Assembly: GCF_964355755.1 (NCBI RefSeq)
Contig: NC_092673.1
Coordinates: 18,163,648 to 18,227,647 of the forward strand
Origin: Antedon mediterranea
Lineage: Eukaryota > Animalia > Echinodermata
Length of the DNA stretch: 64,000 nt
Reading direction: 5' to 3'
The notes under the pieces were generated by a model. That model saw nothing but the letters and a program-made list of their open reading frames with translations. It was not told the DNA's origin and did no database searches. The position numbers and the translations under genes were made by a program. Shown piece after piece: positions 4,195-63,274 of this stretch (position 1 is the stretch's first letter; each line of letters opens with the position of its first letter).

Positions 4195-7100
4195 AAGAGA
4201 ATGTGTAGGCTTACTTTTACATTAGAAGCTATCAGTATTAATAATTGTTAAATGAACACGCTGTATTTTTTAAATGGAAAGGTACGTTTGTTTTTTATTT
4301 CAAATCCAACAAAAATAACCAGCTCCAATATGTAACTGTTAAAAACAAATTAAAATGTTTGAATAGTTAGCAATACTTTAAAACTTTCTTTAAAGATTAT
4401 GAAATCATAAATATTACAATTAAAGGGCTCATTCTCATCAAACATAATGATGATATTGATTATTTCCATCAATCATCATTTTCATAAAATAGTGTCATTA
4501 TTTCTTACATTTTAACAGGAAAAAATTTGAAGAAGCTTTGTGGTACGGGAGTGATTTGCAAACAATTAAACACATTTGTAAGACGCAACCAGATCTTGTG
4601 AAATCTATCAGTAAGGTATTTAAAACAAGATGTACATTATTTTTATAATATTATCAAAGAAGAAATTTAATTAAAGTTTAAAATTATAGAGATTGTAATT
4701 TTCTTTATTAGTTATTATAACATTTTTTTATATAATGAATTACAATTATTTTGCAATATCACACTAATGATGTTGGTATAACCTGCATGCACTGATTAAC
4801 AACATTAGGCTAAAAATAATAATATAAATACACACTGATGATGGAGGTATTACCTGCATGCACTGATTAACCACATTAGGCTAAAAATAATAATATAGAT
4901 ACACACTGATGATGGAGGTATAACATGCATGTACTGATTAACCACATTAGGCTAAAAATAATAATATAAATACACACTGATGATGGGGGTATAACCTGCA
5001 TGTACTGATTAACCACATTAGGCTAAAAATAATAATAAAATACACACTGATGATGGAGGTATAACCTGCATGTACTGATTAACAACATTAGGCTAAAAAT
5101 AATAATATAAATACACACTGATGATGGAGGTATAACCTGCATGTACTGATTAACAACATTAGGCTAAAAATAATAATATAAATACACACTGATGATGGGG
5201 GTATAACCTGCATGTACTGATTAACAACATTAGGCTAAAAATAATAATATAAATACACACTGATGATGGAGGTATAACCTGCATGTACTGATTAACCACA
5301 TTAGGCTAAAAATAATAATATAAATACACACTGATGATGGGGGTATAACCTGCATGTACTGATTAACCACATTAGGCTAAAAATAATAATATAAATACAC
5401 ACTGATGATGGAGGTATAACCTGCATGTACTGATTATCCACATTAGGCTAAAAATAATAATATAAATACACACTGCTGATGGCGGTATAACCTGCATGCA
5501 CTGATTAACAACATTAGGCTAAAAATAATAATATAAATACACACTTATTGAAGGGGATTCTTTTCGCATAGCCATCATGGTACCAATTGCTCCTTGCATT
5601 TCCTAATTTTGATAATAATACTGTAAAAAAGGGAGTGGGGAGGGGTTGCTAGAACCATAAAACCCTCCTGCTTACGAGTCTGTTATCCTTATTATAGGGA
5701 GTGGGGAGGGGTTGCTAGAACCATAAAACCCTCCTGCTTACGAGTCTGAATCCTTATTATAGGGAGTGGGGAGGGTTTGCTAGACCATAAAACCCTCCTT
5801 CTTACGAGTCTGTTATCCTTATTATAGGGAGTGGGGAGGGTTTGCTAGACCATAAAACCCTCCTTCTTACGAGTCTGTTATCCTTATTATAGGGAGTGGG
5901 GAGGGTTTGCTAGACCATAAAACCCTCCTTCTTACGAGTCTGTTATCCTTATTATAGGGAGTGGGGAGGGTTTGCTAGACCATAAAACCCTCCTGCTTAC
6001 GAGTCTGTTATCCTTATTATAGGAAGTGGGGAGGGTTTGCTAGAACCATACTTACTTACGAGTCTGTTATCCTTATTATAGGGAGTGGGGAGGGTTTACT
6101 AGAACCATACTTACTTACGAGTCTGTTATCCTTATTATAGGGAGTGGGGAGGGTTTGCTAGAACCATACTTACTTACGAGTCTGTTATCCTTATTATAGG
6201 GAGTGGGGAGGGTTTGCTAAAACTATAAAACCCTCCTGCTTATGAGTCTGTTATCTTTATTATAGTTTTACTAATGTGTACACATACATTTTTATTTTTA
6301 GCCAGAAAGAAAGCATACAGACATTTGTCAAAGGTAATTTCCTTAATCTTATGTTGGTGAGTTAAGGATCATAAATGAATTTACTTTTTATTTTATTTCA
6401 CCACCACACAAGTCAAGTCAGTTACAACGTTGAACAATAGAAAATGATCAATAGACATTTATTTAAACATATATAACTCAATCAAAATATCTTATGTCTT
6501 AAGCTGCTATTAGCTTTGATATCTTAATTCCTCTTACCAGTAGTAGTACTATCAGAATCATTATTGATAATCTATACATTGTTACAACATGCTGCTATTA
6601 GCTGTGATATCTTCATTCCTCTTACCAGTAGTAGTACTATCAGAATCATTATTGATAATCTATACATTGTTACAACATGCTGCTATTAACTGTGATATCT
6701 TTATTCCTCTTACCATTAGTAGTACTATCAGAATCATTATTGATAATCTATACATTGTTACAACATGCTGCTATTAACTGTGATATCTTTATTCCTCTTA
6801 GCAGTAGTAGTACTAGCAAAATCATTATTGATAATCTATACATTGTTACAACATGCTGCTATTAGCTGTGATATCTTCATTCCTCTTACCAGTAGTAGTA
6901 CTATCAGAATCATTATTGATTATCTATACATTGTTACAACATGCTGCTATTAGCTGTGATATCTTCATTCCTCTTACCAGTAGTAGTACTATCAGAATCA
7001 TTATTGATTATCTATACATTGTTACAACATGCTGCTATATTAGCTGTGATATCTTCATTCCTCTTACCAGTAGTAGTACTATCAGAATCATTATTGATAA

Positions 7101-10100
7101 TCTATACATTTTTACAACATGCTGTTATTAGCTGTGATATCTTCATTCCTCTTCCAGTAGTAGTACTAGTAAAATCATTATTGATAATCTATACATTGTT
7201 ACAACATGCTGCTATTTAGCTGTGATATCTTCATTCCTCTTCCAGTAGTAGTACTAGCAGAATCATTATTGATAATCTATACATTGTTACAACATGCTGC
7301 TATTTGTTACAACATGCTGCTATTAGCTGTGATATCTTCAATCCTCTAAACCAGTAGTAGTACTATCAGAATCATTATTGATAATCTATACATTGTTACA
7401 ACAAGCGGCTATTAGCTGTGATATTGTCAATCCTCTTACCAGTAGTAGTACTAGCAGAACCATTGATAATAGCTGTGACATCTTGTAAAGTGGATAAATA
7501 TTTTTTATTTTATTTGCAGACGAAAGTTGGCCAAAAGAAAGGAGAGGAAGAAAAACGGATCAAGGTAATTGATTGAAATATGTTGGTAAATAAGTAGGGA
7601 GAGAGAGAAAATAAAAACAAATTTAATATTTACAACATCTCAAACTGGTTTTGATTAGAATTGGGGGAAACATCTCTTGGTATCTTTATTTTATTTTAAT
7701 CCTTAACCATAAAACATACAAAACAAATAAAAATCCATAGCAGCCAAAAAAGCTGAATTGGGGATTTGTTACAAAGGCCAAATTTTTACAAATTATAAAT
7801 TTCACATATTTTTTTTCAAATAAATATTATAAATATTAAACAATTTAAAAATTACACATAAAAGCAAGCAAAAGGCACAAAGAAGCGTTTTGCTAAGAAA
7901 AAAAACATGTAAAGTCATTGTTATTTAAGAATTAAGCAGACAAGTGAGATATAGAAGAAGCGGTCATTTATTATATCTGGATAATGAGACACCAAATTGT
8001 CCATATGCATTTTATCATATTTTAACTTTTAATCGCTTTTTAAAGATTTTGTGCAATAATGTGTGTGTTCTATATTTTAATTTTTTGTTTATATTTTATA
8101 TATATATCGGTTTTTTATCGTACTAATATTTGCCAATCTTTAAGAAGAATTTCTATTGTTATTTTATTATGATAATGGACAAATAAAGCTTTTCAATATT
8201 TCATTAATTTTTCATTTGCAGGAATGGCAGATTCTGAAACTTTGAACAGTTTCCGAGACCTAAAAGGTGGTCTCAGTGGGTACTTTGATGGTGAAAGATA
8301 CCATTGGCTGAGGTTCCTACTATTTGATCAATTGGATGTCGGGGACCTTACAAATAAAGATTTCAATGGACATGACTTACTCAATACACTTGAAGACAAA
8401 GGTTTCATCTCAACAACCAATGTTAATTTGCTGTTAGAGATTACAAATACATCTGAAATCGCACAGGCCAAAGATCTTGTATCAAAGTATATGACAAACA
8501 ACAACATTCAGAATAGACATTCTGATAGAACCAAGTTGTCGTCTTACAGAAAGCGACTGTTTAAGGCCCTGAAACAAGTTGACCCAGATGCATTACGTAA
8601 TGTTACTGCTTACTATAAATTGACAAAATATAACTTCTCCAATGTATGGGATGCAGTTCTCTATCTGGAGAATGATAAACAATTAGTAGATGATTTTGAC
8701 AAAATACAGAGGTTTGCAGAACGTCTTGGTGGAATAGCAAGGAACATACTACTTGGTAATGGTATTTAATATTCTTACAAAACTATTCCAAAGTTAATTG
8801 TAATGTAACTATTCATATCTTTCATTTGTTTTAAAATTTTACATGATTTAATTTCAATCATTGTTTATATACTATACAAGTTGATAACGTATTGATTATT
8901 TTATTTATTAACTGATTATGTAGTCAGTCAATATTGGGAAGAAAGAGACTGAATAAGACAAGATAGTGATAATAAAGACATTGCAATACTAATATAGGAT
9001 AATGTCATAAACACAAAAATATGTTGATGAAGAATTTGGAATTTTGTAATTTGGAAAACTGATTATAGATATAGAAAATGTAACTCAAAATTGTGTTTGA
9101 AAATTGTAAATACTGGACTAACTAACAACAACAAACCCCCCCCCCCCCCCCCCCGCCCCACCTTTGGCTGGCTGACCCCTCCCCTGGGGGTAATCTATAA
9201 GAAATTTAGAAAAATGAAGCTGCTAGGTCTCCGGAAATTGCACTTATACATTGATATGATACAAAATTACCATGGTTGGGGTTGTTGGGGGTGAGCTAAG
9301 AAAATTTTGAAAACTAGAGCTGCAGCTCTACAAAAATTACACTCATACATTGAAAATGGTGGAGGGAAAATTTGAAAATGTGAAAAATTCATATTATTAA
9401 ATTATCTGTTTTAAAAACAAATTCACTGAAATAAATGTAAGTGTATATTAAATAATAAATGATTTATTGCCATCGGTCACAATTTAAATTCCCATGTTAT
9501 TAAAATAATACTAATGACAATGGCAGTAAAATAAGAAATAATTGATTATACTTACTTGGATAAAACATGCAAAATTGTATTATTTCACAAGATTCCAAAA
9601 AAAACCCTACCTTTTTTCACAGATGTGCAAGATGGTTCAGTGACCTCTGCATTACCACAGTCTGATATCCAAGGCAGTCAACAAGGTATGATCCACTGGT
9701 TAATTCCAGAGGTTAATCATCTAAGTGGTTACATTTTGAAATAAAACTTAAAAGACATATAATATAACTGTAGCACATTTTGAGTTATTCAAACTGTATA
9801 CATTTTAGATGAAAATGTATAGTTATGTTACTCTCCAAAATGAACATAAAATGTATAGTTATGTTACTCTCCAAAATGAACATAAAATGTATAGTTATGT
9901 TACTCTCCAAAATGAACATAAAATGTATAGTTATGTTACTCTCCAAAATGAACATAAAATGTATAGTTATGTTACTCTCCAAAATGAACATAAAATGTAT
10001 AGTTATGTTACTCTCCAAAATGAAAATGATGAACATAAACAGTCATTTATTTGTGTGTCACTCATACAAAATAAAAAGCTTTGTCATTAATGTGTAATGT

Positions 10101-13100
10101 ATAACTGTCTTTTTTGTATTTTTGTTGAACAGAATTAATAAAGCTATTAGCATCAGATTCACCAGTTACTGTTAATGAGGAATTAAAAACACAAATGAAG
10201 AAAGTGATGATTGCGGAACAGGAAAGAAAACTTGAAGCAGAGAGCGGTGAGTTAAGGATCATAAATTAATTTACTTTTTATTTCGTCACACTCAACAGTG
10301 ACACAAGTCAAGTCAATTGCAAAGTTCAACAATAGAAAATGATGAACATATTTAAACATAATTATATAAACAAAATCCAAAGCAGTCTTAAGCTGGCCTT
10401 TAATATACTGTTCAACATACACATAACTGTCTTTTCTGGATGTTTTTATTGACCAGAAGTGACAAAGCAATTACCATCGGATTCATCAGATACTCTTAGT
10501 GATGAATTTCAAACACAAGTTGTGGAACAGGAAACTAAACCTGAACCAGAGAGTGGTGAGTGTCATAAAATATTAGTTGTATTATTATGGTTAAACTAAC
10601 TTTAAATGTGATGTTATAGAATGGATTTTAGCTACATTTTTTTTTTATTTCAACATTTATAAAAAAAAGAATGTCTTTAAACAGAATTAGAAAAAAATAC
10701 TAAATTCATACATGTAAACGATTGATAAGGTAAATGACTTATTTAACTAATCTTTAAAACAACATGTCTTTTATTATTAGTGAAGAATAAAAGCTGATAC
10801 ACTGAACAATATCTGCATAAATACTGTCATGATATTTATATATAAGTTGCTGTGACACTTACAGGCCACCGTACTTTGATCACACAAACAAAACATATTC
10901 ATTATGGTCGGCAATATATTATCAGGGAAGAGTTAAATTACAATTTAACTCTATTGTAATTTAACTCTTCCCTGGTATTATCAACAAACTTAAAAATAAG
11001 AGATAGTTCTCTATCCATTGTAAATAGAACAGTTTATATTTCATCAAAGAACGTATTGTTAATCAATCTTATTTTGATATGCTTGCTCTATAAATTCAAC
11101 AACAGAATAATTATGATTGGTCAAAGCTCTCTGTGAAGCTGTCAACATCTTGAAATTAGCATGCAACATACAAATACATTGCAAAATAATAACAAATTGA
11201 TATTAATAATCAAATTAGGGTGTGGTACATTGTGTAGGTCTATGGTACAGGGCTCAGGTGGCAGGCCTTTTAGGGTGTGGTACATTGTATAGGTCCATGG
11301 TACAGGGCTCAGGTGGCAGGCGTTTACTTTACTTGCCAACTAATGTTTATTTTTTTCTTGTATCAATTTTCTAGTTTTTTATTGTAATATGGTCCCCTAA
11401 TGCTATTTTTTGTAATATATTTATAGACCATAAATAAATTTTTAAAAATGAGGTTCTGCACAGTGAATTTATGGTTTTGTGGTTGATTGTGTTGAGTAAT
11501 GAATAATCAAATGCTTGTGATATTTAATTCTTAATACTGATACTCATTTCAGATCTGCAGTCGCCAGAAAATGACAGGTAAGTAGTACTGTATAATGAGT
11601 GTATCACAGTATCTATACTGTTTATTATACTCTCCAATACCATAGAGTTAGACCAACACCCTGCTAGTTAATTGTATGCCCTGAGATGATAGTCTGGAAG
11701 GAATATTATTACTATCACTTGTGTGTCTATCAGTTCAGTTGTATATATTAATAACATAACCTGTTAATACAACCATAAAGTTTAACCATAAAAATAGTGT
11801 TGAAACAATTTTACACAAAATCAAGAATTATAACAAACATCAAAAGAACTTTTAAACCCAAATAATAATAATGAAACAATCCTGGTTTTATATAGAATTA
11901 CATTCTGCATAAACTTAACGGAGGATGGCGGACCTTTTGTCCTACCAATATTTTCAATTTCAGTAAGATATATGCCACACTTCCGTTTTTGCCGACAGAC
12001 TCCCATATTTATACTTGTCTCCTTATGCTCCTGGTTTTATATTCTCCCGTATTACAAAGATAACTGAACTTAATGTGTTGCTTTCTGCAATAAAATATAA
12101 AAAAAAGAAGCTCAAAACACATACAAATTTATGATATTTAAGTCATAATTTATTGATCCTCTTATTGAAGGGGATTCTTTTCACATAGCCATCATGGTAC
12201 CAATTGCTCCTTGCATTTCCTAATTTTGATAATAATACTGTAAAAAAGGGAGTGGGGAGGGGTTGCTAGAACCATAAAAACCCCTCCTGCTTACGAATCT
12301 GTTATCCTTATTATAGGGAGTGGGGAGGGGTTGCTAGAACCATAAAACCCTCCTGCTTACGAGTCTGTTATCTTTATTATAGGGAGTGGGGAGGGGTTGC
12401 TAGAACCATAAAACCCTCCTGCTTACGAGTCTGTTATCCTTATTATAGGGAGTGGGGAGGGGTTGCTAGAACCATAAAACCCTCCTGCTTACGAGTCTGT
12501 TATCTTTATTATAGTTTTACTAATGTGTACATATACATTTTTATTTTTAGCCTGAAAGAAAGCATACAGACATTTGTCAAAGGTAATTTCCTTAGTCTTA
12601 TGTTGGTGAGTTAAGGATCATTAAAATGAATTTACTTTTTATTTTATTTCACCACCACACAAGTCAAGTCAGTTACAACGTTGAACAATAGAAAATGATC
12701 AATAGACATTTATTTAAACATATATAACTCAATCCAAATATCTTATGTCTTAAGCTGCTATCAGCTCTGATATCTTAATTCCTCTTACCAGTAGTAGTAC
12801 TATCAGAAGCATTATTGATAACCTATACATTGTTACAACATGCTGCTATTAGCTGTGATATCTTCATTCCTCTTACCAGTAGTAGTACTATCAGAATCAT
12901 TATTGATAACCTATACATTGTTACAACATGCTGCTATTAGCTGTGATATCTTCATTCCTCTTCCAGTAGTAGTACTATCAGAATCATTATTGATAATCTA
13001 TACATTGTTACAACATGCTGCTATTAGCTGTGATATCTTCATTCCTCTTACCAGTAGTAGTACTATCAGAATCATTATTGATAATCTCTATATTGTTACA

Positions 13101-16100
13101 ACATGCTGCTATATTAGCTGTGATATCTTCATTCCTCTATACCAATAGTAGTACTCTCAGAATCATTATTGATAATCTATACATTGTTATAACATGCTGC
13201 TATTAGCTGTGATATCTTCATTCCTCTTACCAGTAGTAGTACTATCAGAATCATTATTGATAATCTATACATTGTTACAACATGCTGCTATTAGCTGTGA
13301 TATCTTCATTCCTCTTACCAGTAGTAGTACTATCAGAATCATTATTGATAATCTATACATTGTTACAACATGCTGCTATAATAGCTGTGATATCTTCATT
13401 CCTCTTACCAGTAGTAGTACTATCAGAATCATTATTGATAATCTATACATTGTTACAACATGCTGCTATTAGCTGTGATATCTTCATTCCTCTATACCAA
13501 TAGTAGTACTAGCAGAATCATTATTGATAATCTCGACATTGTTACAACATGCTGTTATTAGCTGTGATATCTTCATTCCTCTTACCAGTAGTAGTACTAT
13601 CAGAATCATTATTGATAATCTATACATTGTTACAACATGCTGCTATTAGCTGTGATATCTTCATTCCTCTTCCAGTAGCAGTACTATCAGAATCATTATT
13701 GATAATCTATACATTGTTACAACATGCTTCTATTAGCTGTGATATCTTCAATCCTCTTACCAGTAGTAGTACTAGCAGAACCATTAATAATAGCTGTGAC
13801 ATCTTGTAAAGTGGATAAATAATTTTTATTTTATTTGCAGACGAAAGTTGGCCAAAAGAAAGGAGAGGAAGAAAAACGGATCAAGGTAATTGATAGAAAT
13901 ATGTTGGTAAATAAGTAGAGAGAGAGAGAAAATAAAAACAAATTTAATATTTACAACATCTCAAACTGGTTTTGATTAGAATTGGGGGAAACATCTCTTG
14001 GTATCTTTATTTTATTTTAATCCTTAACCATAAAACATACAAAACAAATAAAAATCCATAGCAGCCAAAAAAGCTGAATTGGGGATTTGTTACAAAGGCC
14101 AAATTTTTACAAATTATAAATTTCACATATTTTTTTTCAAATAAATATTATAAATATTAAACAATTTAAAAATTACACATAAAAGCAAGCAAAAGGCACA
14201 AAGAAGCGTTTTGCTAAAAAAAAAAACATGTAAAGTCATTGTTATTTAAGAATTTAAGAAGCAGACAAGTGAGATATAGAAGAAGCGGTCATTTATTATA
14301 TCTGGATAATGAGACACCAAATTGTCCATATGCATTTTATCATATTTTAACTTTTAATCGCTTTTTAAAGATTTTGTGCAATAATGTGTGTGTTCTATAT
14401 TTAAATTTTTTGTTTATATTTTATATATATATCGGTTTTTTATCGTACTAATATTTGCCAATCTTTAAGAAGAATTTCTATTGTTATTTTATTATGATAA
14501 TGGACAAATAAAGCTTTTCAATATTTCATTAATTTTTCATTTGCAGGAAATACAATGGCAGATTCTGAAACTTTGAACAGTTTCCGAGACCTAAAAGGTG
14601 GTCTCAGTGGGTACTTTGATGGTGAAAGATACCATTGGCTGAGGTTCCTACTATTTGATCAATTGGATGTCGGGGACCTTACAAATAAAGATTTCAATGG
14701 ACATGACTTACTCAATACACTTGAAGACAAAGGTTTCATCTCACCAACCAATGTTAACTTGCTGTTAGAGATTACAAATACATCTGAAATCCAACAGGCC
14801 AAAGATCTTGTATCAAAGTATATGAGAGACAACAACATTCAGAATAGACATACTGGTAAAGCTAAGTTGTCACCTTACAGAAAGCGACTGTTCAAGGCCC
14901 TGAATCAAGTTGACCCAGATGCATTACATAATGTTACTGCTTACTATGACTTGACAAAATATAACTTCTCCAATGTATGGGATGCAGTTCTCTATCTGGA
15001 GAATGATAAACAATTAGTAGATGATTTTGACAAAATACAGAGGTTTGCAGATCTGCTCGGCACAATAGCAAGTAACACACTAATTGGTAAAGTACTATCC
15101 TGAAGTTAATTGTTGATGTTATGTCCAACAAAAAAGTTATGTAATGATAATTTAATTTAAAGCTGAGAATATATTAACTGAATTTTTATAGGCAACAGAT
15201 CCAGGATTTTGTGAAAGGGGGCGCAACTGTAGAGAGTCCTCACCAACTCAGCCCCACGATGGTTGGGGCTGAGTTGAAACGATTTTGAAAATTTGACGCC
15301 TCTAGATGGTCGGAAATGTAAAATGTATTAACAATTGATATTTTTAAATATGAAAACTGAGGTAGTTTAGCCTATTAAAAAGTGACATTTACCCCCATAT
15401 GCCCCATTTTGAGTAAAAGCGTCACAACAGGGCGCTTCGCGCAAGTCAGCGTTTGTACATGGCGGAAAAGAGTGCTTGTCCATTCATGATAAATGGCACC
15501 TATAATTTGCAGGAAAAGGCACTCTCTCATATGTAGCATGCTACCAATGAGCAAAACGCTCATACTTTTTTCCTCCGGTAAACACACGTGGCTAAATCAT
15601 TCACTCAGTATTTTGTTTTGATTGTGTTGCATTCAAGTTCAATGCAAACGTACATATAGGGGAAGACCCGAAAAAAGCGCAAAATTCAATGCTTATTATA
15701 GCTCAATACTTATTTACATCAATTTGTTGAAGAAATTAAAAATATAAATATAAATAGGTATTGGTACAATTGAGTACGACGTATCGGCGGGTGGCCTAGA
15801 AAAAAAATTGGTTGCTATAATGTAAACTACAGTACATGTTACCACGGTTATTTTGTGTACTATATTAATATTAACATATCCTCTACAATGATGATACACT
15901 ATACTTCATAGCCACACGTACTGTATGTAACTTTATGCTTGCTGACTGCCAGCAATTTAAACAATAAGTAGGCCTACGCGGTTGTCTGGTGGTGTCCTTT
16001 GTACGAATCGTTCGTGCCCCACCTCGCTGTATGAGTATGATACACGCGTCAATATCATGTTACATCCAGGGACCAAAATGCGTTTATTTTTCAGGTAAAA

Positions 16101-31650: not shown

Positions 31651-32529
31651 GTAAGTAGGCTCATAAAAATGTTAATTCAGTGTTCCTTGAGAAATTAATA
31701 GGCACATGTGAATTCCTATAGGTACTGTAGTATGAAAAGCAATATCTGACATTACATTTTAGTTAGTAGGCATGTTAAGGTGCATATTTTAGGCAAATCC
31801 TTCAAATTGTGATAACATTTTGAAACTTTGCACAGTTATTCATTAGGGTGTCAAAAATATGAAATGGAAGGGTTGCACAAAATTTGGGTAGGGGAAAGCC
31901 GCCATTTTGGATTTCAAAATGGCGGACCTAAAATTTTCACTTGTCAGGTATATCTCTGCTAAAGAGGCACCTAGAGTTCTGATTTTAAATGCAAAATATA
32001 TGGTAGTGGGGCCACCAAACATATTGGTATAATTAACATTTGATTGCATGGCGGCCATGTTGGAATTCAAAATTACGGACTTCAAATTTTCACTTTTCAG
32101 GTATATCTCTGCTAAAAAGGCACCTAGAATTCTGATTTTAGGTGCAAATTATAATTATGGTAATGGGGTCACCAAACATATTGGTATAACTAACATTTTG
32201 ATTGCATGGCGGCCATGTTGGATTTCAAAATGGCGGACCCCAAATTTTCACTTTTCAGGTATATCTCTGCTAAAAAGGTACACAGTGCTCTCATTTTAGG
32301 TGCAAATTATATGGTAATGGGTCACCAAATATATTGGTATTTAACTAACATTTTGATTGCATGGCGGCCATTTTGAATTTCAAAATGGCGAGCTCAAAAT
32401 GTTTCAGTACGGTACCTACAGTTATAATTTTAGGTACAAAATATAATATGGTATTGAGGTCAACAAACATATTGGTATAACGTCTTTGATTGCATGGCAG
32501 CCATTTTGAATGTAGCTCAAACCTGGTAA

Positions 32530-33516: not shown

Positions 33517-33529
33517 CTATATATGGTTG

Positions 33530-34698: not shown

Positions 34699-35654
34699 GT
34701 GTCCTTGTTAAATGCATGTAATTATGAACATAAACAAATAGTGTAAAGCCAGTACGGGTTGAGCTACATTCAAAATGGCCGCCATGCAATCAAAGACATT
34801 ATTCTAATATGTTTGTTGACCTCAATACTATATTATACTTTGTACCTAAAATTATAACTGTAGGTACCGTACTGAAACATTTTGAGTTCGCCATTTTGAA
34901 ATTCAAAATTCCCGCCATGCAATAAAAATGTCAGTTAAATACCAATATGTTTGGTTACCCATTACCATATAATTGGCACCTAAAATCAGAACTCTGTGTA
35001 CCTTTTTAGCAGAGATACCTGAAAAGTGAAAATTTGAAGTCCGCCATTTTGAAATCCAAAATGGCCGCCATGTAATCAAAATGTTAGTTGTACCAATATG
35101 TTTGGTGACCCCATTAACATATAATTTGAACCTAAAATCATAACTCTAGGTGCCTTTTTAGCAGAGATATACTTGAAAATGAAAATTTGAAATCCGCCAT
35201 TTTGAAATCCAACATGGCCGCCATGGAATCAAAATGTTAATTATACCAGTATGTTTGGTGACCCCACTACCATATAATTTGCACCTAAAATCAGAACTGT
35301 AGGTGCCTCTTTAGCAGAGATATACCTAAAAAGTGAAAATTTTAAGTCCGCCATTTTGGAATCCAAAATGGCGGCCATGCAATTAAAATATTAGTTATAC
35401 CAATATGTTTGGTGACCCAATTACCATATAATTTTCACCTAAATTCAGAACTCTAGGTGCCTATTTAGCAGAGATATACCTGAAAAAGTGAACAATTTGG
35501 GTCCGCCATTTTGAAATCCAAAATGGCGGCTTTCCCCTGACCAAATTTTGTGCAACCCTTCTATTTCATGTTTTTGACACCCTAATGAATAACTGTGCAA
35601 AGTTTCAAAATGTTATCACAATTTGAAGGATTTGGTCACTTAACAGGCCTACTA

Positions 35655-36170: not shown

Positions 36171-36176
<6 letters not shown>

Positions 36177-36208
<32 letters not shown>
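36177..36208. repeat. (TA)n microsatellite
   Basis: Uninterrupted TA run. Confidence 0.95.
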
Positions 36209-36211
<3 letters not shown>

Positions 36212-47617: not shown

Positions 47618-48189
47618 AAATCAGACAAGATAGTATCAGACAATTTGATAGCTATAAAGATGTATTATTCCCCATTTAAAAATAATAATTAATTTTTTTT
47701 GTTGAATGCCATTTTAATGTCCCATAATAGGTATCCACTTTGACCAAAAGTTTAATTGAAAACATTTTTTTACCTGAAAAAATGGTAATTTAAAGCAAAA
47801 ATTAATCAATTTGGCTGCCAGCCAATGGTTTTTGTGTAAAGTGAAAACGTTATTTCTTTCTTTTTTTTTCTACAGAAGTGATTAACTTTATTAAAACTAC
47901 AAAATAACCCGCTATTCAAAGTCTGATTTAATTAATCTTCATTTTTCATGTTTTTGGGTGACAATCTTTAAACAAATATTTTAACAAAATGACATTGTTG
48001 TGAGTATCAGTAGCTGTATCTCAATGTACACATATAATAAGCAAAAGCTAAATCCAAACGACAAAGTAAAACAGCCAGCATCAGAAACATCTATATTATG
48101 GTATATTTATAAACTTCAATAGGAATTTATAGAGATACAGATAGTTTACATACCAGGAAATATTAAATGTTTACCTTTTATATTTTCAG

Positions 48190-54100: not shown

Positions 54101-57100
54101 ATCGTCAGTATCCTCTTCTTCAGAACTACCGATGCTGATAAGAGGAATGTTTAATGCTCGACCTCCCGTGCGGTCTTTGCTTCCCCGGTGGGACTTAAAC
54201 TCGGTCCTTGAGGCCCTTACAAAACCGCCATACGAACCCCTTGGTTCAGCATCTCTGCTCGATGTTTCTATTAAGACTGCGTTTCTAGTAGCCGCAGCGT
54301 CATGTAAGCGTAAGGGTGAGATTCACGCACTTTCCTTAGACCCTGGCCATATTCGGTTTGAGAACAACGGTGTTCGTCTCACTTTCCGAGCAGGGTTCTT
54401 AGCAAAGACCCAAACCCTGAACCACTCTCCACCAACCATTTTTATTTCTAAAATTTCCTCGCACTCCTCTGTGCGAGAAGACAGGCTTTGGTGCCCAGTG
54501 CGTGCGATACAAATATATGTTAATCGCACGCAACATTTACGAAACGGAATGTCACATCTGTTTGTGACGACAATAAAACCCCATGGCCCCGCCTCTAAGG
54601 ATACGATAGCCTGTTGGGTCGTTTCCGCCATCAAGTCAGCGTATGCATCTTCACGCTTGCCGCCGCCAGCTCATATGCATGAGGTGCGCGGCTCAATGGC
54701 TTCGTGGGCGTTATTTCGGGGTGTGCCCGTTTCGGATATTTTAGCGGCGGCATGGTGGAGAGCTCAGACCACTTTTTCATCGTGCTACCTCCAGGACGTT
54801 GTCTCGTCCCAGGCGACCGTAGCGTCGGCAATTTGTCGGCCTTCTAAGTAGGGTAAGTTTGGTTTTAATCACAATCACGCCCTCCTCCTGATGCCGGTTC
54901 TACTCTGGCATATGTAGAGTCTATACAGGTAGGGATCTCACGAAATAGACTACCAACACCACTGTTGGTTTGTGTAGTTTATACCAATCCCCAAACTTTG
55001 GCTATTGTTTACTTGCTTTGTCCTATTGTAAACTAAAGCCTAGTTTGGCTTAGTTCTCATACTACCAGTCTATCTTGTGATGACCAATCATCTCAGACTA
55101 TGCTACTTTATATATTAGACACTGAAATATAAAACAAATATTATGTTAAAATTTGATTTTTGTAATCAAAGATGTATAAATATATGGGGTTTCAATCTTG
55201 AGATTTTGCTTTTTAAAATTATTGTCAAACTTATATATTAACTATATACAACTTATAAATATTGTTCAACTTTACTAATACATTGTTATAATAGATTTAA
55301 TCCCAGAGAACCATCTACTGATGGTATCGTTGCAACTACAGTGTTTCAGGCAACTAATAAGAGCAAATGGAAAAAGATGAAAGATGTAAGAGGTAAGAGT
55401 CAAGGAAATGCTAGAGGAAAATATTGATTAACGTCCGTATATAACACATTCAAAATGTTGCTATGAATTTAAACCAATTTTTTAAGTTCCATTATTAATC
55501 TTACTGTACATTGTATAACAGCAGTTTAATGACATTTTGAACAACGCTATTAAGTACTGTAGTTAAAAATATGTAGACTCATAAATCTGCTAGTAGGCCC
55601 TTAACCTTAAAATAAAAAATGTATGTCTTCCTTTAAATAAGATTCCATAACACAATTATCGTCATAATTGAATTTACGAAACAACCTCTTATTTTCAATA
55701 CCTTCAAAATGTATACCAAATTTGTAGGTATATTGATATACATTGTCTTGTCTTGGCACGACTGGACTATTGTAATTGTTAAAGAAGCCATCTTTGGATG
55801 TTGAGAAATTTGCAAGTTACAGACCCATTTCCAATCTTCCATTTCTTCGAAAAATTATTGAGAGGGTTGTGTCCAGTCAGCTGCAATCATATCTGAATAG
55901 TGTAATGATTTTGGGGTAGAAGGAAAAGATAGAGGGCAGCAGATGGAGGCAGAGTTAGGCAGGAAGAGTAGGAGAGAACGGACGTGAGAAAAAGAGCAGG
56001 GAGGGATTGGAGAAGGAAGGCAATGGAGGGTTACCTCGAGCTGCGTTAAAAAGGAGGGAGAGATTGGAGCTGGAAAAGCGGAGAAGCAGGGACATAAGTA
56101 GGGACATTAGAGAAATTGGAAAACAAAGTGTAGAGAGGATTAGAGAAAAGAAAGAGGAAATTAGAGCTGAATAATAAAAGGAGAGTTAAGACACAGCAAG
56201 TAAGTTAGCCGGAGGGTACAGCCTACCGCTTGTGCTGCTGTTGGAGACATAGTGAGCCGGAGGTTGCGCCTACTGTACTGGTTGTATCACTATTTGAGAC
56301 ATAGTGAGCCGGAGGTTGCGCCTACTGTACTGGTTGTATCACTATTTGAGATAGCTGAGCCGGTGGTTGCACCTACTGGTTGTGTTACTGCTTGAGATAT
56401 AGTTAGCCGTGGTACACCCTGTGGTTGTGATACTGGTGGGTACACCTAGTAGCCAGTGGTTAAGACCACTGGTGGTTACCCTGTTAGCCGGTACGTGGTT
56501 ACACCACAGTTGGAGGTTCCACCTTAGTTGGTGGTTACGTGCAGTTGGAGGTTACACCTTAGTTGGTGGTTACGTGCAGTTGGAGGTTACACCTTAGTTG
56601 GTGGTTACAGGCAGTTGGAGGTTACACCTTAGTTGGTGGTTACGTGCAGTTGGAGGTTACACCTTAGTTGGTGGTTACGTGCAGTTGGAGGTTACACCTT
56701 AGTTGGTGGTTACGTGCAGTTGGAGGTTACACCTTAGTTGGTGGTTACGTGCAGTTGGAGGTTACACCACAGTTGGTGGTTACGTGCAGTTGGAGGTTAC
56801 ACCTTAGTTGGTGGTTACGTGCAGTTGGAGGTTACACCTTAGTTGGTGGTTACGTGCAGTTGGAGGTTACACCATAGTTGGTGGTTACGTGCAGTTGGAG
56901 GTTACACCATTGTGTTGGTGTACGTTGCTGTGGAGGTTACACCATTGTGTTGGTGGTTACGTGCAGTTGGAGGTTACACCATTGTGTTGGTGGTTACGTG
57001 CCATGGAAGTTACACCATTGTGTTGCTGTGGAGGTTACGTGCGGGTGGTGGTTACGCTACTATTTTAAGTCCGGCGTAATAACAGAACTAATCAGATTAA

Positions 57101-60100
57101 TTATTATAATCACTTGTACACATAAATTAGAAATCAGAGAAGAATAAAGGAGGCTACTCCAAAGATTGTAATTGATTTGTGTGTTTAGTTCATTCGTGGT
57201 ACCGCAGACCTTTCCCCAAAAAGGGAACGAACCCGAGGACGGATTTTCGTTACAATAGAAATGGGTTATTTGCCACTAGACAATCCGCCTATCGTCCAAA
57301 CCATAGTGTAGAATCTGCACTTCTTCTTGTGCATAATGATATTAGCATTGCACTTGACAACCATAATGAGGTTCTTATGGTCCTTTTGGACTTCAGTGCT
57401 GCTTTTGACACCATCAACCATAAGCAGTTATTACATCGTCTATCATCACGTTACGGTATCTCTGGAATTGGTCATAATTGGTTTGCATCATATCTAAATG
57501 ATAGGTCCCAGTCCATTGTCATCAAGGATGTTTTGTCGAACCCGTCTCTGCTTACTGTTGGAGTTCCACAAGGGTCTGTGGTTGGTCCTCTTCTGTTTAT
57601 TTTATTTACCGCCCCACTACTTGACCTCATTGAATCTCACAATGTGAAGTGTATGGCGTATGCTGATGACACTCAGCTTTATGTCACTTTCAACCCTAAT
57701 CAGCGTGATTCTGCCGTCAGTAAACTTGAATCCTGTATTGCCGAAGTCAGAGCATGGTGTCAATCTAACAACCTGGTAACGAATGATGCTAAAACAGAAC
57801 TTATTCATTTTTCCTCTCGTTTTAAACCTGCGTGTAATTCTTTCATTCAACCTTCCTCATCCTGTAGAAACCTTGGAGTTGTCATGGATTCAACGCTTAG
57901 CATGTCCAATCAGGTACATAACATCTGCAAAGCTGGGCTTCACGCTATTCGTAAAATTGGAAGCATTCGGAAGTACCTGGATTCAAAATCAACTGAGATT
58001 CTTGTTCACGCCTTTGTTACATCAAGGCTAGACTGTTGTAACTCATTACTTTATAGCTTACCAGCAAAGGATATCGAGTCCAGAACACAGCTGCCCGATT
58101 GGTCGTTCAAAGCCCCATAAGGCAACATATCACACCTGTGCTGAGACAGCTTCATTGGCTTCCAGTAACACAAAGAATTACCTTCAAGATCCTGCTATTT
58201 GTTTTCAAAGCTCTTCATAATTCTTCATCTAAGTTCATTTCTGAACTTATTCAACCTTATTTTTTTATTTATTTTTATTTTATATATTTAGGCAAATTGC
58301 CAAGGATAACCATAAGCAAATTCAATCACTATCCTTCTTAAAGGTGGCAATCCGTTCACGAGACAAACATATACACACAATGCTCTACATAAACAAAGTC
58401 TTTATTACAAGTCTTTGGGAGTGGAGTTGTAAATTGTCATTAGAAAAAATCCTGACATATGACAGGACTTGAACCCAGGACCCTTGGATTGGCAGCCAAG
58501 CATCATAACCACCAGGCCACAACTCCACTCCAAGCGGTCCTGAGATCTAATTCAGATAATTCAGATAATATTTATTTAGATAATAATGAATGAATATATA
58601 CAAAATAGAAAAAAGATATTAAAGTGAACATAGATAAAGCAGTAATTGGGGTAGTCATTATTATCATGGATCCCTTCTAGAAGTTAAAAACTTGTCTCGT
58701 AGGGACCCACAACAAAACACATTACTAAAAAAATAAAAATAACCTAGAATATATAATTATATAATTTAGGATAAAAAATTACAGTATAATAACATAACTA
58801 ACATCTTCTATATAAAAATCATTTAAATTATATTTCAATAGTTTCATGATAATTATAAATGAAATAGTAATAGTAGTAGTAGATATTGGTAAATGAAATA
58901 TTATTAATAAGATCTAAAACGGCATGGGATGTAGAGTGATTTTTTCGAAAACCATATTGGCGTTTATTAAGTATATCAAATTTTGTGAGATAATCAGAAA
59001 GTTTAGAATACATGAGTTTTTCAATAATTTTGGAAAACACTGAAAATTAGATAATTGACTTCGTTCACCTTTCTTGAAAATGGGCACAACTTTAGCTAGT
59101 TTTAAGTGTGTTGGAAAAGTGCCAGATAAAAAAGATGAATTTATACAATGGGTAAGTTGGTGGATGATTAAGGGAGACACAGATTTTAAGACACGAGCAG
59201 TAATACCGTCAGATCCAGACCCTTTATTAGAATTTATATTGTATATTGTTAGGTTAACATCATCAATTGAAACTGGGCTAATATAAAATGAGTTGGCAAA
59301 CGTAGAATGAAGATAAGATAATGGATCAGTTATATTAGTTGGCATACTATTAATAAGATTAGGACCAATTGTAGAAAAATAGTTGTTAAACGATTCACAC
59401 ATCTCTTTTTGAGTTTTGTAAATATTATCACCGTCTTTAATTAGATTCGGGTGCTTGTTATTATTATTACCTTTATTTAAAACAGAATTTATTACAAGCC
59501 ATGTGTTCTTCAAATTACCTTTATATCTATCAAACTGGGAAGTATAATAATTCTTTTTAGCAGTGCGACAAAGATTAGTGAAAATATTATTATATTTTGT
59601 ATAGTTTAATTTGTCATTATTACTACGCGTGTGCATATATTTGTTATAAAGTTTATGTTTCCGAGAACTACATTTTAAGAGAGCAGATGACATCCATGGT
59701 TGTTTAAACGTTTTATTTGATTTTATATTACTTTTAACCAAGTGTCTGGAGTGGATATTTGTAAATTGAATCAATCGATAAGGCATTTAGGTCGTTTATA
59801 CGAAATGAATAGTTGGCGCTATTATCATCAAGGTTTTGATCATTAATTTCTTGATCAATGAACTGAAATATAGGAAGGTGGTCGGAGATATCATTAAGTA
59901 AAACACCAGCAACTATTTTATAGTTAGATTGTTTGGAATAAAAATGATCAATCAAGGTTGCCGAAGTTGAGGTAATCCTAGTTGGTTTTGAAATAGTTGG
60001 AAAAAAAGAATGGGAAATTAAGGTATTTAGGTAGGTGTTTGTTAATTTATGGTTATGGAATTTTAATAAATCAATATTGAAGTCTCCCATGAGATGACAA

Positions 60101-63100
60101 TTTTTGTTTTCATTGTTAATTTGGGTTAATACATTATCGACGGATTTAGTAAAAGAATCTAGCCCTCCACAGGGGGCTCTGTAAATAATGCCTATAATAT
60201 CATTTTTTGTCTTTGAATTTTCAATCTCAACAAAAAGTGATTCGGAAAGGTCGTCGAATTGTAATGCTAATATCATTACGTATAAAAAATGCAACTCCTC
60301 CGTCAATTTGATTATTGCTTCTATTACTTGCAAAGAAGGAGTAGTTATTAATGAAAGGAATAGGGGAGTTTTCATTAAGCCATGTTTCACTGATACCGAT
60401 TATGGAAAATTTGTTATTAATTGAATTCAAAAGGCATTCGAGATCATTAACTTTATGCGTAATACTTCTAATATTAAGATGCAGGAGAGATAGTTTAGTA
60501 TTAAAGGATGTATTAAACTTAGAATTAAATTGTGAATAATCATAAAAGCTGCATTCATCTAGGGTAACTGACTGTGAATTGAGATTATTAATTAGTTGAT
60601 CAAAAGATTCATCATATTTGTCATTTTCGTTGTAATTAACTGGATTAAAGGTTATGTTAGAAATATCATTGTTGTTAGTAAGTTCAGAATTCACATTAAA
60701 GTCATAAAAAGGAAGTAAGTGAAGATAATTAACATTCATTAACAATAGCTGCGTATAGCGTTATCTAAAAAAAAAATACAGCAATAAGCATGCATGAGAC
60801 TGTATACATTAATACATAATTAATGAGAAGCAAAATAAACAATTCTTGAAATAAAAATATATTATAGGTAATATTTCGGTTGACGGTAAGTAGAGTCAAA
60901 GTAAAGTTAAATTATTGCGACGACTAGAATTACTCAGTAGCTTCGGGGGCATGTGCTTCCTTGAGGTTCGGGTAGTATTTGGCAAGATGATCCATGTCGA
61001 TGAATGTGCGAACATAACCATTTGCATCTAGCCTATGTAACACAATTTGTCAAGGTGGAGCCAGGCCTTTACTTTGTTGGAATGCAGGTATTTCATCGAT
61101 GAGTATAATGCCTTTCTTCTACTTATCACTCTGCTGGTAAAATCATCATGTTATTATCTTTAAATTTAGGTCTCACTTTTGGAGCTGCCTTGCGTACTCT
61201 TTCTTTAGTGGAATATCTGAGAAAGTATGCAACAAGTGGTCTTGGTTTATCCCTGGTGGTATTACGTGGTCCAACTCGATGGGCTCGTTGTATATCATCA
61301 TTAGCGATTTTGATGCCGGTGGTATTGGAAATAAATGAGGAAAGGAAATTAACAGTACCTTTCACTATCCTCCGCTTGTTCGGGTATGCCAGTAAACCTC
61401 AGATTGTTACGGCATTGACGTCCTTCTAGGTTGTCGATTTTGTCGCGTATCTCTTCTATGCATTCCGTAGTGGATTGCTGCGTATCCTCGGCAATATCTT
61501 TCAGCTTAACATCCATGAAATCAGAATTTTCCTGCATATCGGCGTGCAAATTCCTCAGTTCTTTTTATAAACCGGTGATTTCAAGATTGAGGATGGTAAT
61601 GTCTTTTTCCAAGGAGACAATCTTGGTGACTGCGTCGCATAATGTTGATTTAATATCAGCAATGGTTTTGCAGCCCATGATTGACTTGATGAGAGTCGAC
61701 AGCCAGGTGTTCGGTTCAGCGGCGCTAATATTTACATTAGAAATATTTGGCTCATTGTTTTCCACGTTGGCCATTGTAGATGTTTAGTTAGAATAAATAA
61801 CAAAAGTGTACCTATATTTAATGCAACGGATACGTTTACTATCCAGGTAGGTATACAGGTCTCATGCAGTTAGTAGCTTATCCTTGCAACATGCTATCAC
61901 AGGTAAGCGAGTACTGTATCTAAAAAACGTATACGTGTGAGAGCTCCGCTCAAACACGTCTGCACTCGACAAAGGACAATACACTTCCTAGATCTGAGTC
62001 TCTTCTTGCCCATATATTTCATCCTTCCACTAAGTTTTATGGAAATCGTTCATTTTCTTCGGCATCCGTTTCTCTATGGAATGCGTTGCCTATTGAAATC
62101 AGTCAGGCTACTTCCACCAGTGTCTTCAAATCTCTCCTCAAAACCCACCTTTTTAATTTGTAATTTTTCTACATTTTCTGTCTTTGTAAAGCGCATTGAG
62201 GCTTTCAGCATAATGCCCTATATCAAGTACCAGTTATTATTATTATTATTAATTCTTTACTTCTTAGAACATCTAGCAAAGAAATCAAACGTCTTCAAGT
62301 TTTGCAAAATTGTGCAGCCAAGCTTTTTTTTAGTTTTTAACTAGTTTGATCATGTGTCTCATTTTTTTAAAGAACTCACTGGCTTAAAATTGAACAGTGT
62401 ATAATCTACAAAATATCCACACTAGTTTACTAATCAGTTTCTGGGTCTGCGCCAATTTATCTGCAGGATTTAATCTCATTTCATGTCACAACAGGAAAAG
62501 TTGTTCGCTGTGATAAAACACACCTTAACCGTCAGTGTAAGCAATTCAAGTCACTTCTAAAATCTCACCTTTTTCAATAATTCTTGTTGGTATTTTAGCG
62601 CTGTGAGACATCAGTAAATAGTGCTTTATAAAAATTGATTATTATTCTTAATAATAAATATCACTTAATATTGTTGATCTATAAATAATATATGTTTCAT
62701 TTTTCTTGCTTTGTAAAGGTGTTGAACTATCCAAGCAAATTCGTGCACATGCGTTAGAAAAGAAATTAGATGAAGGTAGGCACATTATTATGATTGTAGT
62801 ACACTGAAAGTATCTATTTTTATTTCATCGTTTTTATTTATTATTTTATGTAGTAAATTGTATTAGTTTAAATGTATGTGTATTGTTTCTGGGGTCTTTC
62901 TTGAGACAAGAAACTTGATTTCTTCTAGAGAAGACCCCAAATGATGGCTTATTACTAATGTTTTCATTTATGTACACATCTATATATTATACTGTATAAT
63001 GCCATTGTTGAACAAATAAATGTTTTTTGAACTTGAACATACTAAAACATCAAAATGTTATTTTTTATATCTGCAGATTTACAGTAGGTATATCAAGCAA

Positions 63101-63274
63101 TATTACAATAGTGATTTTTTTTTATTGTGTTTAAAAGGCAATGATAAAACCTGGGATAAAGTTGTGAATATTGCAAGGAAAAGTTTAACAATGGCAACAG
63201 GAAAGGTAGATGTGAGTGACAAAACTAGTATATGGGACTACGCTGGTCAACTAGACTACTATATAACACATAGG
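48190..63274 (+). CDS. Gene 2: ankyrin-repeat + Roc (ROCO family) gene, continuing beyond the window
   Basis: Exons 48190-48280 (ATG 48273), 48544-48637, 48829-48936, 49100-49207, 51004-51088, 51396-51561, 55295-55392, 62719-62775, 63138-63274. Open and phase-consistent throughout. Motifs DGDTPLH x2, EGNTP, GKEGAGKT, STDGI, WDYAGQLDYYITHR. Confidence 0.88.
48829..49207 (+). CDS. Two 108-nt phase 0-0 exons, each encoding one ankyrin repeat
   Basis: DGDTPLHEYLRTVNPTLDIVTCLIQNDTSAATLQNK and DGDTPLHEYLSKVNPTLDIVTCLVQNDTSAATLKNK. Both carry the G.TPLH ankyrin motif. Confidence 0.88.
49522..50585. repeat. Minisatellite, 82-bp unit x13
   Basis: tttatttctggttccactcctgggtaccctgatttcagttccattttgaatttgtcatcaaaaagagcaattatatataatg. 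Confidence 0.95.
51130..51345 (+). mobile_element. Degenerate SINE with a Deu/Nin-like core
   Basis: B-box-like ggttcaagattc, then gtcttctcggataaggactgtaaaccgta...gaagaacc, resembling the conserved DeuSINE central domain from memory. Confidence 0.4.
51396..51561 (+). CDS. Gene 2 Roc P-loop exon
   Basis: FLVPAEIYAKGAHAIKIYKDELENGEIAVVNARCMFLGKEGAGKTSCVKAMLGK. The P.EI...G...Y...L..G leader is typical just upstream of Roc. Confidence 0.9.
51958..52640 (+). CDS. DIRS gag-like ORF (N-terminal Cys/His finger)
   Basis: CSVC...DRHLACPRC...CEVC..W at the start of the 701-aa ORF. The rest of that ORF is the alternative frame of pol. Confidence 0.7.
52673..53850 (+). pseudogene. DIRS pol remnant: RT thumb, RNase H and adenine-methyltransferase-like domain
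   Basis: Stop at 53054 just before VTVDASLSGWGG and a frameshift near 53627. No YLDD RT core is visible. Confidence 0.8.
53514..54851 (+). CDS. DIRS tyrosine recombinase (open ORF)
   Basis: SRRESTRTLY..., TIAGYRSAI, RWDL, KTAFLVAAASCKRKGEIHAL, CPVRA, HEVRG..ASWA, W...TF..CY. This is the R..H..R..W..Y pattern. Confidence 0.88.
   Translation: MLNFQFFAPGTQKPRPGPPTPCQSHGTGCGRMPFRPSSSHSSHSPPSMQNPPGSSMVVSPDLVSSNAESALFTTQDPANSARPLSSIPGPARPSQPAIPDADCLALVRNRLRSAGIPDGPALLAAQSRRESTRTLYNSRLKRFTRWCAGYEIDPHSASLRKVSRFLHDLFESGLQVRTIAGYRSAIAVVVPRFPDGSSVSSSSELPMLIRGMFNARPPVRSLLPRWDLNSVLEALTKPPYEPLGSASLLDVSIKTAFLVAAASCKRKGEIHALSLDPGHIRFENNGVRLTFRAGFLAKTQTLNHSPPTIFISKISSHSSVREDRLWCPVRAIQIYVNRTQHLRNGMSHLFVTTIKPHGPASKDTIACWVVSAIKSAYASSRLPPPAHMHEVRGSMASWALFRGVPVSDILAAAWWRAQTTFSSCYLQDVVSSQATVASAICRPSK
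55901..57254 (+). mobile_element. Solo LTR (Gypsy-like)
   Basis: TGTAA...TTACA termini with a 4-bp TSD ATAG (55897-55900, 57255-57258) and AATAAA at ~57143. Removing it restores the L2 frame YLNRNGLF. Confidence 0.85.
56490..57056. repeat. 35-bp minisatellite inside the solo LTR
   Basis: gttggtggttacgtgcagttggaggttacacctta repeated. Confidence 0.93.
58261..58531 (-). mobile_element. tRNA-derived SINE (same head as 27080-27325)
   Basis: The reverse complement reads gagtggagttgtggcctggtgg...gggttcaagtcc..., with an A-rich tail at 58261-58290. Confidence 0.85.
58565..61975 (-). mobile_element. CR1-group LINE with ORF1 and endonuclease, RT core internally deleted
   Basis: ORF1 fragments DNLEGRQCRNNLRFTGIPE and IQRAHRVG..KPRPLV (L1-type RRM). 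ORF2 HLNIRS, ISETWL, GDFNI, SDHLP, AKVVPIFKKG, QYGFR, then a jump to the 3' UTR at ~58890. Several frameshifts. Confidence 0.9.
62270..62648 (+). mobile_element. Degenerate 3' fragment of a second L2 LINE
   Basis: KRLQVLQNCAAKL, HWL, SAPIYL, FKSLLKSHLF and a tail agcgctgtgagaca...gctttataaaa. Confidence 0.65.
63138..63274 (+). CDS. Gene 2 Roc G3 exon
   Basis: SIWDYAGQLDYYITHR|gtatg, with the same intron position as gene 1 (IHR|gtaagt). Confidence 0.9.

Follow-up and report, generated by a model that had tools for sequence, protein, structure and literature searches.

Probable exon-level shuffling of tandem death effector domain, ankyrin and Roc-COR modules in a crinoid ROCO gene family

Two ROCO genes with a common 5' block

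A stretch of 64,000 nucleotides from the crinoid Antedon mediterranea (NCBI RefSeq assembly GCF_964355755.1, contig NC_092673.1, positions 18,163,648 to 18,227,647), here called the window and numbered from its first letter, carries two plus-strand genes of the ROCO family, which are built on a Roc-COR GTPase core and appear to belong to a large modular family. As a first-pass annotation of this DNA had stated, gene 1 continues into cassettes of tandem death effector domains (DEDs; the tandem cassette is denoted tDED; exons 8222-8761 and 14547-15086) and gene 2 into ankyrin repeats (exons 48829-48936 and 49100-49207). Related protein models are cited below by P numbers.

The 5' blocks of the two genes (4175-4685 and 48170-48706) are 78% identical over 552 nt (E 6e-111), introns included, and 26/35 of the spliced N-terminal residues agree, in line with the earlier alignment of first exons and introns. 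The homology reaches further upstream into likely exons of the 5' untranslated region (UTR), with 2353-2415 matching 46308-46371 (80%, E 4e-9). The gene 1 exon, whose status is judged from this homology, would span 2353-2515 and its gene 2 counterpart with the acceptor region 46308-46466 (both ends approximate); model P0001 ends on a copy of the latter. The first coding exons of gene 1 (4195-4615) contain an ATG at 4274 and an orphan exon resembling an ankyrin cap (4519-4615, ending in phase 0), which differs from gene 2 by a net 3-nt indel that keeps the frame and shows a dN/dS of 0.35 on 8 changes. In paralogue P0015, Pfam Ank_2 matches residues 9-96 (E 3e-4), and since the cap exon common to both genes falls inside this stretch, gene 1 has likely kept a stray part of an array of ankyrins; no further remnants of ankyrin exons were found in gene 1. 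This homology with gene 2 breaks off at 4685, the duplicated tDED block begins at 5544, and a 71-bp minisatellite (4755-5545) lies at the junction.

Exon structure of gene 1

Spliced in silico, gene 1 comprises 22 exons and 994 codons free of stops and frameshifts, with GT-AG borders at 21/21 introns. The start and the cap exon come first, followed by the adapter, tDED1, the linkers, tDED2, the pre-Roc linker, Roc and the beginning of COR-A. The first tDED block (5544-8761) consists of an adapter exon (6306-6333, phase 0-1, requiring the AG at 6304-6305), exon 7520-7564 and the tDED exon 8222-8761 (540 nt, phase 1-1). Low-complexity linker exons follow at 9623-9685, 10133-10246, 10457-10555 (all phase 1-1) and 11553-11577, matching P0081 at 96/100 and P0001 at 87/98 residues. 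The second block (12161-15090) contains exons 12551-12582 and 13841-13885 and the tDED exon 14547-15086 (540 nt, phase 1-1). A pre-Roc linker exon (21116-21208, phase 1-1), common to P0009, P0014 and the ankyrin-Roc model P0079, leads into a Roc of the type called clade A below, encoded by exons 22509-22656 (G1), 23696-23781 (G2), 25547-25707 (G3) and 30425-30604 (G4, reading THKG). The first part of COR-A follows at 30778-31029 and 31465-31650, where the gene ends.

The Roc of gene 1, represented by P0012, scores 54.1 bits against a cut-off of 27 (E 2.3e-14); the G1 and G3 motifs are present in both window genes, and the G2 motif TDG was seen in the alignment. Searches with the tails of five paralogues detected no later Roc-COR exons after 31650 on either strand of the window, and read-through past this point would meet a stop after 14 more codons. 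Because a complete COR is missing, gene 1 is classed as a truncated ROCO derivative, P0014, P0004 and P0015 being full ROCOs; it stops inside COR-A without COR-B, so that the earlier reading as a complete receptor is not supported. A 3.8-kb foldback element (31794-35634), an imperfect palindrome with arms 77% identical over 1.7 kb and parts at 85-92%, begins 143 nt past the last exon. It adjoins the truncation and may have had a part in the 3' loss. By eye, it contains 153-bp subterminal repeats and degenerate transposase-like frames with a Cys-rich tail, and no Pfam match reached the cut-off.

The join between the 5' block and the first tDED block depends on a particular splice acceptor. The cap exon ends in phase 0, and phase 2 is the usual start of the exon that follows, as in window copy 2 and in P0081. 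In copy 1 alone, an AG four bases downstream restores the frame from the cap exon into the tDED block. Such an acceptor is reachable by 4/129 possible single changes, in a region about 98% identical between the copies; by this post-hoc estimate the copy-specific in-frame acceptor is roughly a 1-2% event, which suggests selection for the fusion.

For a transcript check, contigs of four runs were placed on 13790-31890; they are fragmented, and none of them spans the locus. One contig of run X8, a run guessed to be of the RNA kind, skips 21207-22508 with GT..AG ends, the same as the modelled linker-to-Roc intron. This joint was not seen among those listed for the other three runs, and it is not assignable to gene 1, because P0009 and P0014 have the same exons. 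Another X8 contig begins at the tDED2 acceptor with 89 unaligned letters ahead, compatible with splicing.

Gene 2

The 5' part of gene 2 (48190-51088) contains an ATG at 48273, a cap exon (48544-48637), the two ankyrin exons (108 nt each, phase 0-0, 102/108 identical) and an adapter exon (51004-51088, phase 0-1). Exons of a clade-B Roc follow at 51396-51561, 55295-55392, 62719-62775 and 63138-63274, and the gene runs on beyond the window. Up to the window edge it has 287 open codons, which cover the cap, both ankyrin exons, the adapter and Roc as far as G3; they are 81% identical to the first unit of P0015, with 56/61 residues shared in the P-loop region. This paralogue has a complete COR after its Roc. 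Gene 2 is likely an ordinary family member. At 49340-49410, what looks by eye like a further, third copy of the acceptor region of the ankyrin exons is not followed by an ankyrin exon.

Module shuffling in the family

Symmetric exon phases allow exon shuffling without loss of frame. Here, the tDED exon (540 nt) and most linker exons are of phase 1-1, the ankyrin exons of phase 0-0, and the entry into Roc is in phase 1 in both genes, so that the modules are able to move with the frame intact. A tree of 37 cassettes shows two deep tDED clades (I and II), each of which is combined with both types of Roc. RocA is found with tDED-I in 11 cases (9 C-terminal and the 2 window copies) and with tDED-II in 3 (2 C-terminal, 1 N-terminal); RocB is found with tDED-I in 7 and with tDED-II in 11, all C-terminal, and 5 cassettes stand alone. 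The combination of RocB and tDED-II occurs in two species. P0014, the Roc sister of gene 1, has the other tDED clade (28-30% identity over 70 aa). The approximately unbiased (AU) test rejects a clade of RocA tDEDs (p 2e-53) and a grouping of the gene 1 Roc with that of P0001 (p 6e-8); separate trees of the modules, which the first-pass annotation had proposed as a check, are thus incongruent when built from automatic models.

The nearest paralogue changes along gene 1: it is gene 2 or P0015 for the N-terminus (26/35, 25/35), P0081 or P0001 for the tDEDs (168/177, 163/177), P0009 for the P-loop exons (78/78) and P0014 for the COR-A part (142/144). P0079 shows gene-2-like ankyrins followed by the pre-Roc linker of gene 1 (25/31) and a clade-A Roc (68/78). 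The comparable DED-for-ankyrin pair is therefore gene 1 and P0079, and a clean N-terminal swap between genes 1 and 2 on one core, as initially proposed, does not describe the locus. Nor are the DEDs typically N-terminal: the cassette follows COR in 29/32 ROCO-attached cases, the reverse of NLR polarity. Pairs of models part at this boundary, with identities in COR-B and the attached tDED of 99 vs 69% (P0003/P0009), 95 vs 78% (P0001/P0004) and 89 vs 20% (P0007/P0014).

Traces of exchange are also seen between the window copies. Their tDED exons diverge at 28/531 nt and the adjacent intron at 4/657 (Fisher p 6e-7; about nine-fold); the exon differences are patchy and confined to the 3' two-thirds. 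As 28 sites differ in patches, the exons are not one sequence assembled twice. Compatibility between neighbouring sites exceeds that of shuffled sites in 3/3 protein sets (p 0.0005-0.0025) and decays with distance. The patchy differences and this decay fit gene conversion among paralogues. The dN/dS is 0.86 between tDED1 and tDED2 and 0.61 for the ankyrin exon pair, and positive selection between the window copies is not shown by these ratios.

Several points weigh against reading these patterns as shuffling. The groups of the AU tests were named after the trees had been seen, clustered compatibility on protein alignments can also reflect uneven rates, and a tDED dN/dS of 0.86 shows neither purifying nor positive selection. 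Moreover, the paralogue architectures are automatic models from tandem arrays, some of them with evident mis-joins, as in P0001, which ends in a UTR exon of another gene. Nevertheless, the family combines many paralogues with module exons of symmetric phase and, from such models, incongruent domain trees, and from these comparisons it is very probable that recombinational shuffling in the family is real.

Two old Roc clades and the size of the family

As noted in the initial annotation, the P-loop/switch-I regions of genes 1 and 2 agree at only 22/61 residues, and the Roc intron positions are conserved (phase 2 after the P-loop exon, phase 1 after the switch-I exon, phase 0 after the G3 exon). 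A tree of 42 segments from G3 to COR-A sets apart a clade A of 12 rows including gene 1 (branch 2.17, support 100/100), with the tool's warning that long branches meet at the base of the clade. The remaining rows, on the clade-B side, include the first unit of P0015, the nearest relative of gene 2, and proteins of Anneissia japonica. The P-loop region of gene 1 matches P0014 at 60/61 and P0009 at 61/61 residues. Since each Roc is near-identical to paralogues of its own clade, the 22/61 reflect old paralogy, and the rapid change formerly read into the divergent Rocs is not supported.

At G4, clade A including gene 1 reads THKG (one THKA), without the Asp, and clade B keeps THxD; the G4 of gene 2 lies beyond the window. 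An altered nucleotide preference of the Asp-less clade is possible. The loss is not unique to clade A, as the position varies widely in many distant ROCOs, and variation from G4 to G5 has been noted among ROCOs (PMC6337361).

The first-pass annotation had named a genome with only one or two ROCO genes as a contrary case. Searches (44) and look-ups (9) gave 53 named Antedon models with Roc or COR parts; these are 90% clusters of automatic models, including fragments and the gene 1 locus, and not a gene count. Among them, 29 cover more than 70% of the G3-to-COR-A segment. The models are spread over contigs of eight different lengths. Most close paralogues lie on one 36.2-Mb contig. In a search of 50% representatives, the best 150 of 2285 matches (E <= 0.001) were examined, and 27 of the 139 new ones were named. 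Anneissia accounts for 20/50 matches in one of the searches; all matches of the second tDED exon (13/13) and of a Roc/COR exon (8/8) are Antedon mediterranea proteins.

Some models show unusual architectures. P0015 (XP_071947615.1) joins a clade-B and then a clade-A Roc-COR in one chain, and P0029 a clade-B COR to a clade-A switch-I segment; two Roc/COR-A units also occur in P0146 and in the Hondaea protein P0193. The double-Roc models may be true tandem ROCOs or fused predictions. A tail of one or two hydrophobic helices closes P0001, P0005, P0015-P0018, P0074 and P0081, of which several belong to clade A and one is the stand-alone tDED model; this suggests tail-anchored membrane proteins, and an exon for such a tail was not found in the window. 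The crinoid ROCO models P0088, P0086 and P0094 carry TAZ/KIX, ZU5 and Macro domains, possibly as integrated decoys or through fused predictions.

The tDED cassette and its carriers

Pfam DED matches both tDED exons of gene 1 under the curated cut-off (E 1e-3 and 1.6e-4). A structural model from a 30-row alignment reaches a pLDDT of 93 and a pTM of 0.86, that from a single sequence a pLDDT of 39 only. The listed PDB matches are tDEDs of caspase-8, cFLIP and viral FLIP (14-19% identity, best E 6e-4), with caspase-8 and cFLIP at the top (TM 0.62-0.73, ranks 1-10). The cassette is accordingly predicted by the model to adopt a caspase-8-type tandem-DED fold. Pfam matches to TcdB_N, TcpF, T4_Rnl2_C and DUF4712 were dismissed as noise, lying under the cut-off or on a few residues.

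Cassettes of the window clade are not restricted to ROCOs. They head the Antedon NACHT-LRR model P0189 (46% identity) and the shorter Antedon NACHT models P0143 and P0162, and start the Antedon VLIG/URGCP GTPase P0168 and RING-NHL protein P0095. In P0070, four tDEDs of this clade lie ahead of another Roc. P0081 consists of a tDED, linkers and a hydrophobic tail and is identical to the gene 1 insert at 168/177 and 96/100 residues; it is a stand-alone model starting at a Met that also opens tDED exon 1 of gene 1. Scans of 22 window segments and of the close paralogues P0001-P0018 gave no NACHT or LRR match, and the comparison with NLRs is therefore one of working principle only.

Mobile elements and repeats

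A LINE-type insertion (long interspersed nuclear element) at 16127-19112 carries a reverse transcriptase (RT; E 1.5e-33) and one stop between endonuclease and RT, and a second lies at 57176-58120 (RT, E 9e-27). Minus-strand frames at 58914-61787 resemble another LINE by look only. Within an intron of gene 2, 51638-54950 is a GC-rich DIRS-like element with 45-bp inverted ends and weak matches to RNase H and tyrosine recombinase (E about 1e-3); no RT match was obtained in the frames scanned. Dispersed intronic repeats (21758-22453 vs 28573-29282, 23018-23314 vs 28246-28525), showing a very high contig depth, are probably non-autonomous transposons. A 30-bp stretch that is single in the gene 2 intron (46675-46704) forms a 19-copy minisatellite at the matching place of gene 1 (3537-4139), and many introns in the window contain minisatellites of 35-90 bp.

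Interpretation

The locus is best explained as belonging to a ROCO family that has expanded in crinoids and mixes ankyrin exons, a tDED cassette of a single exon and two old Roc-COR types, and whose intact members rather probably act as GTP-switched scaffolds in immunity or cell death. An immune or cell-death role as such is probable; its best, indirect support is the tDED clade common to NACHT-LRR, VLIG/URGCP and RING-NHL models. Of the NLR-like, modular invertebrate family proposed at first, the large family, the incongruent trees, the recombination signatures and the tDED pool shared with NACHT-LRR models stand, and the rapid Roc divergence and the N-terminal placement of the DEDs fall.

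The modules would likely have been mixed by unequal recombination and gene conversion in tandem arrays. In an intact member, the N-terminal module (ankyrins or others) would sense or auto-inhibit, the nucleotide cycle of Roc-COR would change the dimer state, and clustered tDEDs could seed assemblies of DEDs, by which caspase-8-like proteases would be recruited or blocked. The likely origin of gene 1 is a P0079-like gene of ankyrins and RocA in which a duplicated P0081-like block of tDED and linkers replaced ankyrin exons, and whose 3' end was lost. Gene 1, if expressed, would yield a four-DED protein on a Roc unable to dimerise via COR-B, and might serve as an adaptor or decoy.

Possible, if on balance not expected, is that the family shuffles and gene 1 itself is recombination debris or a set of separate units (a 5' stub, a P0081-like tDED-linker gene and a truncated Roc) that never yields 994 aa. 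In favour of this, the upstream AG at 6300-6301 has the better pyrimidine tract and its use leads to a stop at codon 65; as it could dominate, selection for the fusion is suggested, not proven. Of COR, only the start of COR-A is recognized (E 1.6e-5 for one exon), COR-B is absent, and the truncation lies beside the foldback element. The RefSeq model at the locus, P0012 (XP_071948775.1), has only 404 aa, 100% identical to gene 1 over 391 aa, and since it covers only the part from within tDED2 to the end of the G4 exon, RefSeq does not support the full fusion. P0081 shows that a tDED-linker-transmembrane unit can be modelled alone from the Met opening tDED exon 1, a degenerate tDED fragment with stops lies on the plus strand in the upstream intron of gene 1 (2712-2945; 43% over 60 aa to the tDED of the clade-B model P0019, E 1.6e-7), and many Ectocarpus ROCOs are predicted pseudogenes (PMC11378527). 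The 994 uninterrupted codons and the intact splice borders, the frame-keeping indel in exon 4519-4615 and the copy-specific in-frame acceptor, however, argue against decay, and P0070 has an N-terminal tDED array on a Roc at another locus. Judged on this sequence evidence, expression of the gene 1 fusion is slightly doubtful.

Improbable is a role of the modular family outside immunity, in the cell death or remodelling of development, autotomy or regeneration, as a DAPK1/MFHAS1-like scaffold, or a largely neutral expansion. ROCO roles are diverse, including cytoskeleton, autophagy and stress (PMC11378527; PMC4104024). The two ankyrin repeats of gene 2 offer a small surface for a diversified sensor, and neither the ankyrin nor the tDED dN/dS exceeds 1. 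Birth-and-death expansion with conversion, however, is typical of immune receptor clusters, and the tDED clade is common to NACHT-LRR and VLIG-type GTPase models. That the mosaic is an artefact of assembly or annotation, with repeats collapsed or mis-joined at minisatellites and chimeric predictions among tandem paralogues, is very improbable: the key junction does lie within an 800-bp minisatellite, the tDED blocks are about 95% identical overall (introns 98-99%), no long record crosses the locus and some public models are mis-joined, but the mixing of Roc and tDED types recurs in many models on several contigs, with RocB and tDED-II joined in two species, and the 5' block of gene 1 is not a copy error of gene 2, being only 78% identical to it.

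On the preferred reading of a shuffled ROCO family, shuffling would be visible in a deuterostome at the level of exons, and for every module a donor can be identified. The locus supplies natural constructs with which to study the Roc-COR cycle (a protein lacking COR-B, a clade whose G4 has no Asp, a double Roc-COR model), and a ROCO GTPase is predicted to connect directly to DED-caspase signalling. A bolder version is unlikely: in crinoids, receptors built on a GTPase core would form a system of their own beside the NLRs, using one mobile, caspase-8-like tDED exon that NLRs and VLIG GTPases use as well. Whole Roc-COR blocks would also be shuffled, into proteins in which two different units, of the THxD type and the Asp-less THKG type, act as built-in asymmetric dimers, some of them anchored by C-terminal membrane helices. 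Gene 1 would then be a newly formed fusion, an effector or a decoy, that one new splice acceptor had fixed.

Comparison with known systems

The literature covered, which mostly excludes subscription papers, yielded no ROCO expansion with tandem DEDs from crinoids or echinoderms at large and no protein with two Roc-COR units; the supplements of PMC8195603 and PMC11378527 might contain such architectures. About forty animal combinations are mentioned (PMC11378527). In Trichoplax adhaerens, no fewer than 17 ROCO genes with CARD, death, TPR and LRR domains are described (PMC4104024), which resemble the crinoid family as a lineage-specific animal expansion with death-fold domains around Roc-COR and no kinase. 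The crinoid family differs in its tandem DEDs and ankyrins, in two old Roc clades exchanging cassettes and in a mechanism visible at the exon level. Where Trichoplax proteins contain two G domains, Ras-like domains precede Roc (PMC4104024), whereas P0015 contains two whole Roc-COR units.

Brown algae possess LRR-ROCO candidate immune receptors with shuffled LRR exons, a role that is proposed and unproven (PMC11378527). Common features are the expanded family, a sensor with one repeat per exon, exon shuffling and many pseudogenes (PMC11378527). As far as this source describes them, the algae shuffle LRR exons within one LRR-ROC-COR plan, whereas the crinoid family relocates entire effector cassettes, before or after Roc-COR, and employs ankyrins. 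For bacteria, too, ROCO proteins have been put forward as immune switches. In bacterial AP-GTPase systems, N-terminal repeats are paired with variable C-terminal effectors (PMC8195603). These prokaryotic Roc-COR conflict systems share with most crinoid members (Ank-Roc-COR-tDED) the polarity of repeat sensor, GTPase-COR switch and C-terminal effector (PMC8195603). The crinoid genes, in contrast, are eukaryotic and intron-rich, carry a caspase-8-like tDED effector and have the cassette also at the N-terminus.

Metazoan NLRs and caspase-8/cFLIP are linked to the family by the tDED fold and by the cassette clade heading the Antedon NACHT-LRR models P0189, P0162 and P0143. Unlike them, the window genes lack NACHT, LRR and caspase domains and have a GTPase core, with the effector usually C-terminal in the family. 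Human DAPK1 carries ankyrins before Roc-COR. A death domain follows its Roc-COR (PMC6337361), and ROCO proteins with TIR or death domains are known from Aplysia (PMC9334734). Together with MFHAS1, these proteins resemble the crinoid family in ankyrins before and a death fold after Roc-COR and in the joining of ROCO to immune adaptor domains. The crinoid proteins differ from them in having no kinase, pairs of DEDs instead of a death domain, and dozens of copies instead of one or a few.

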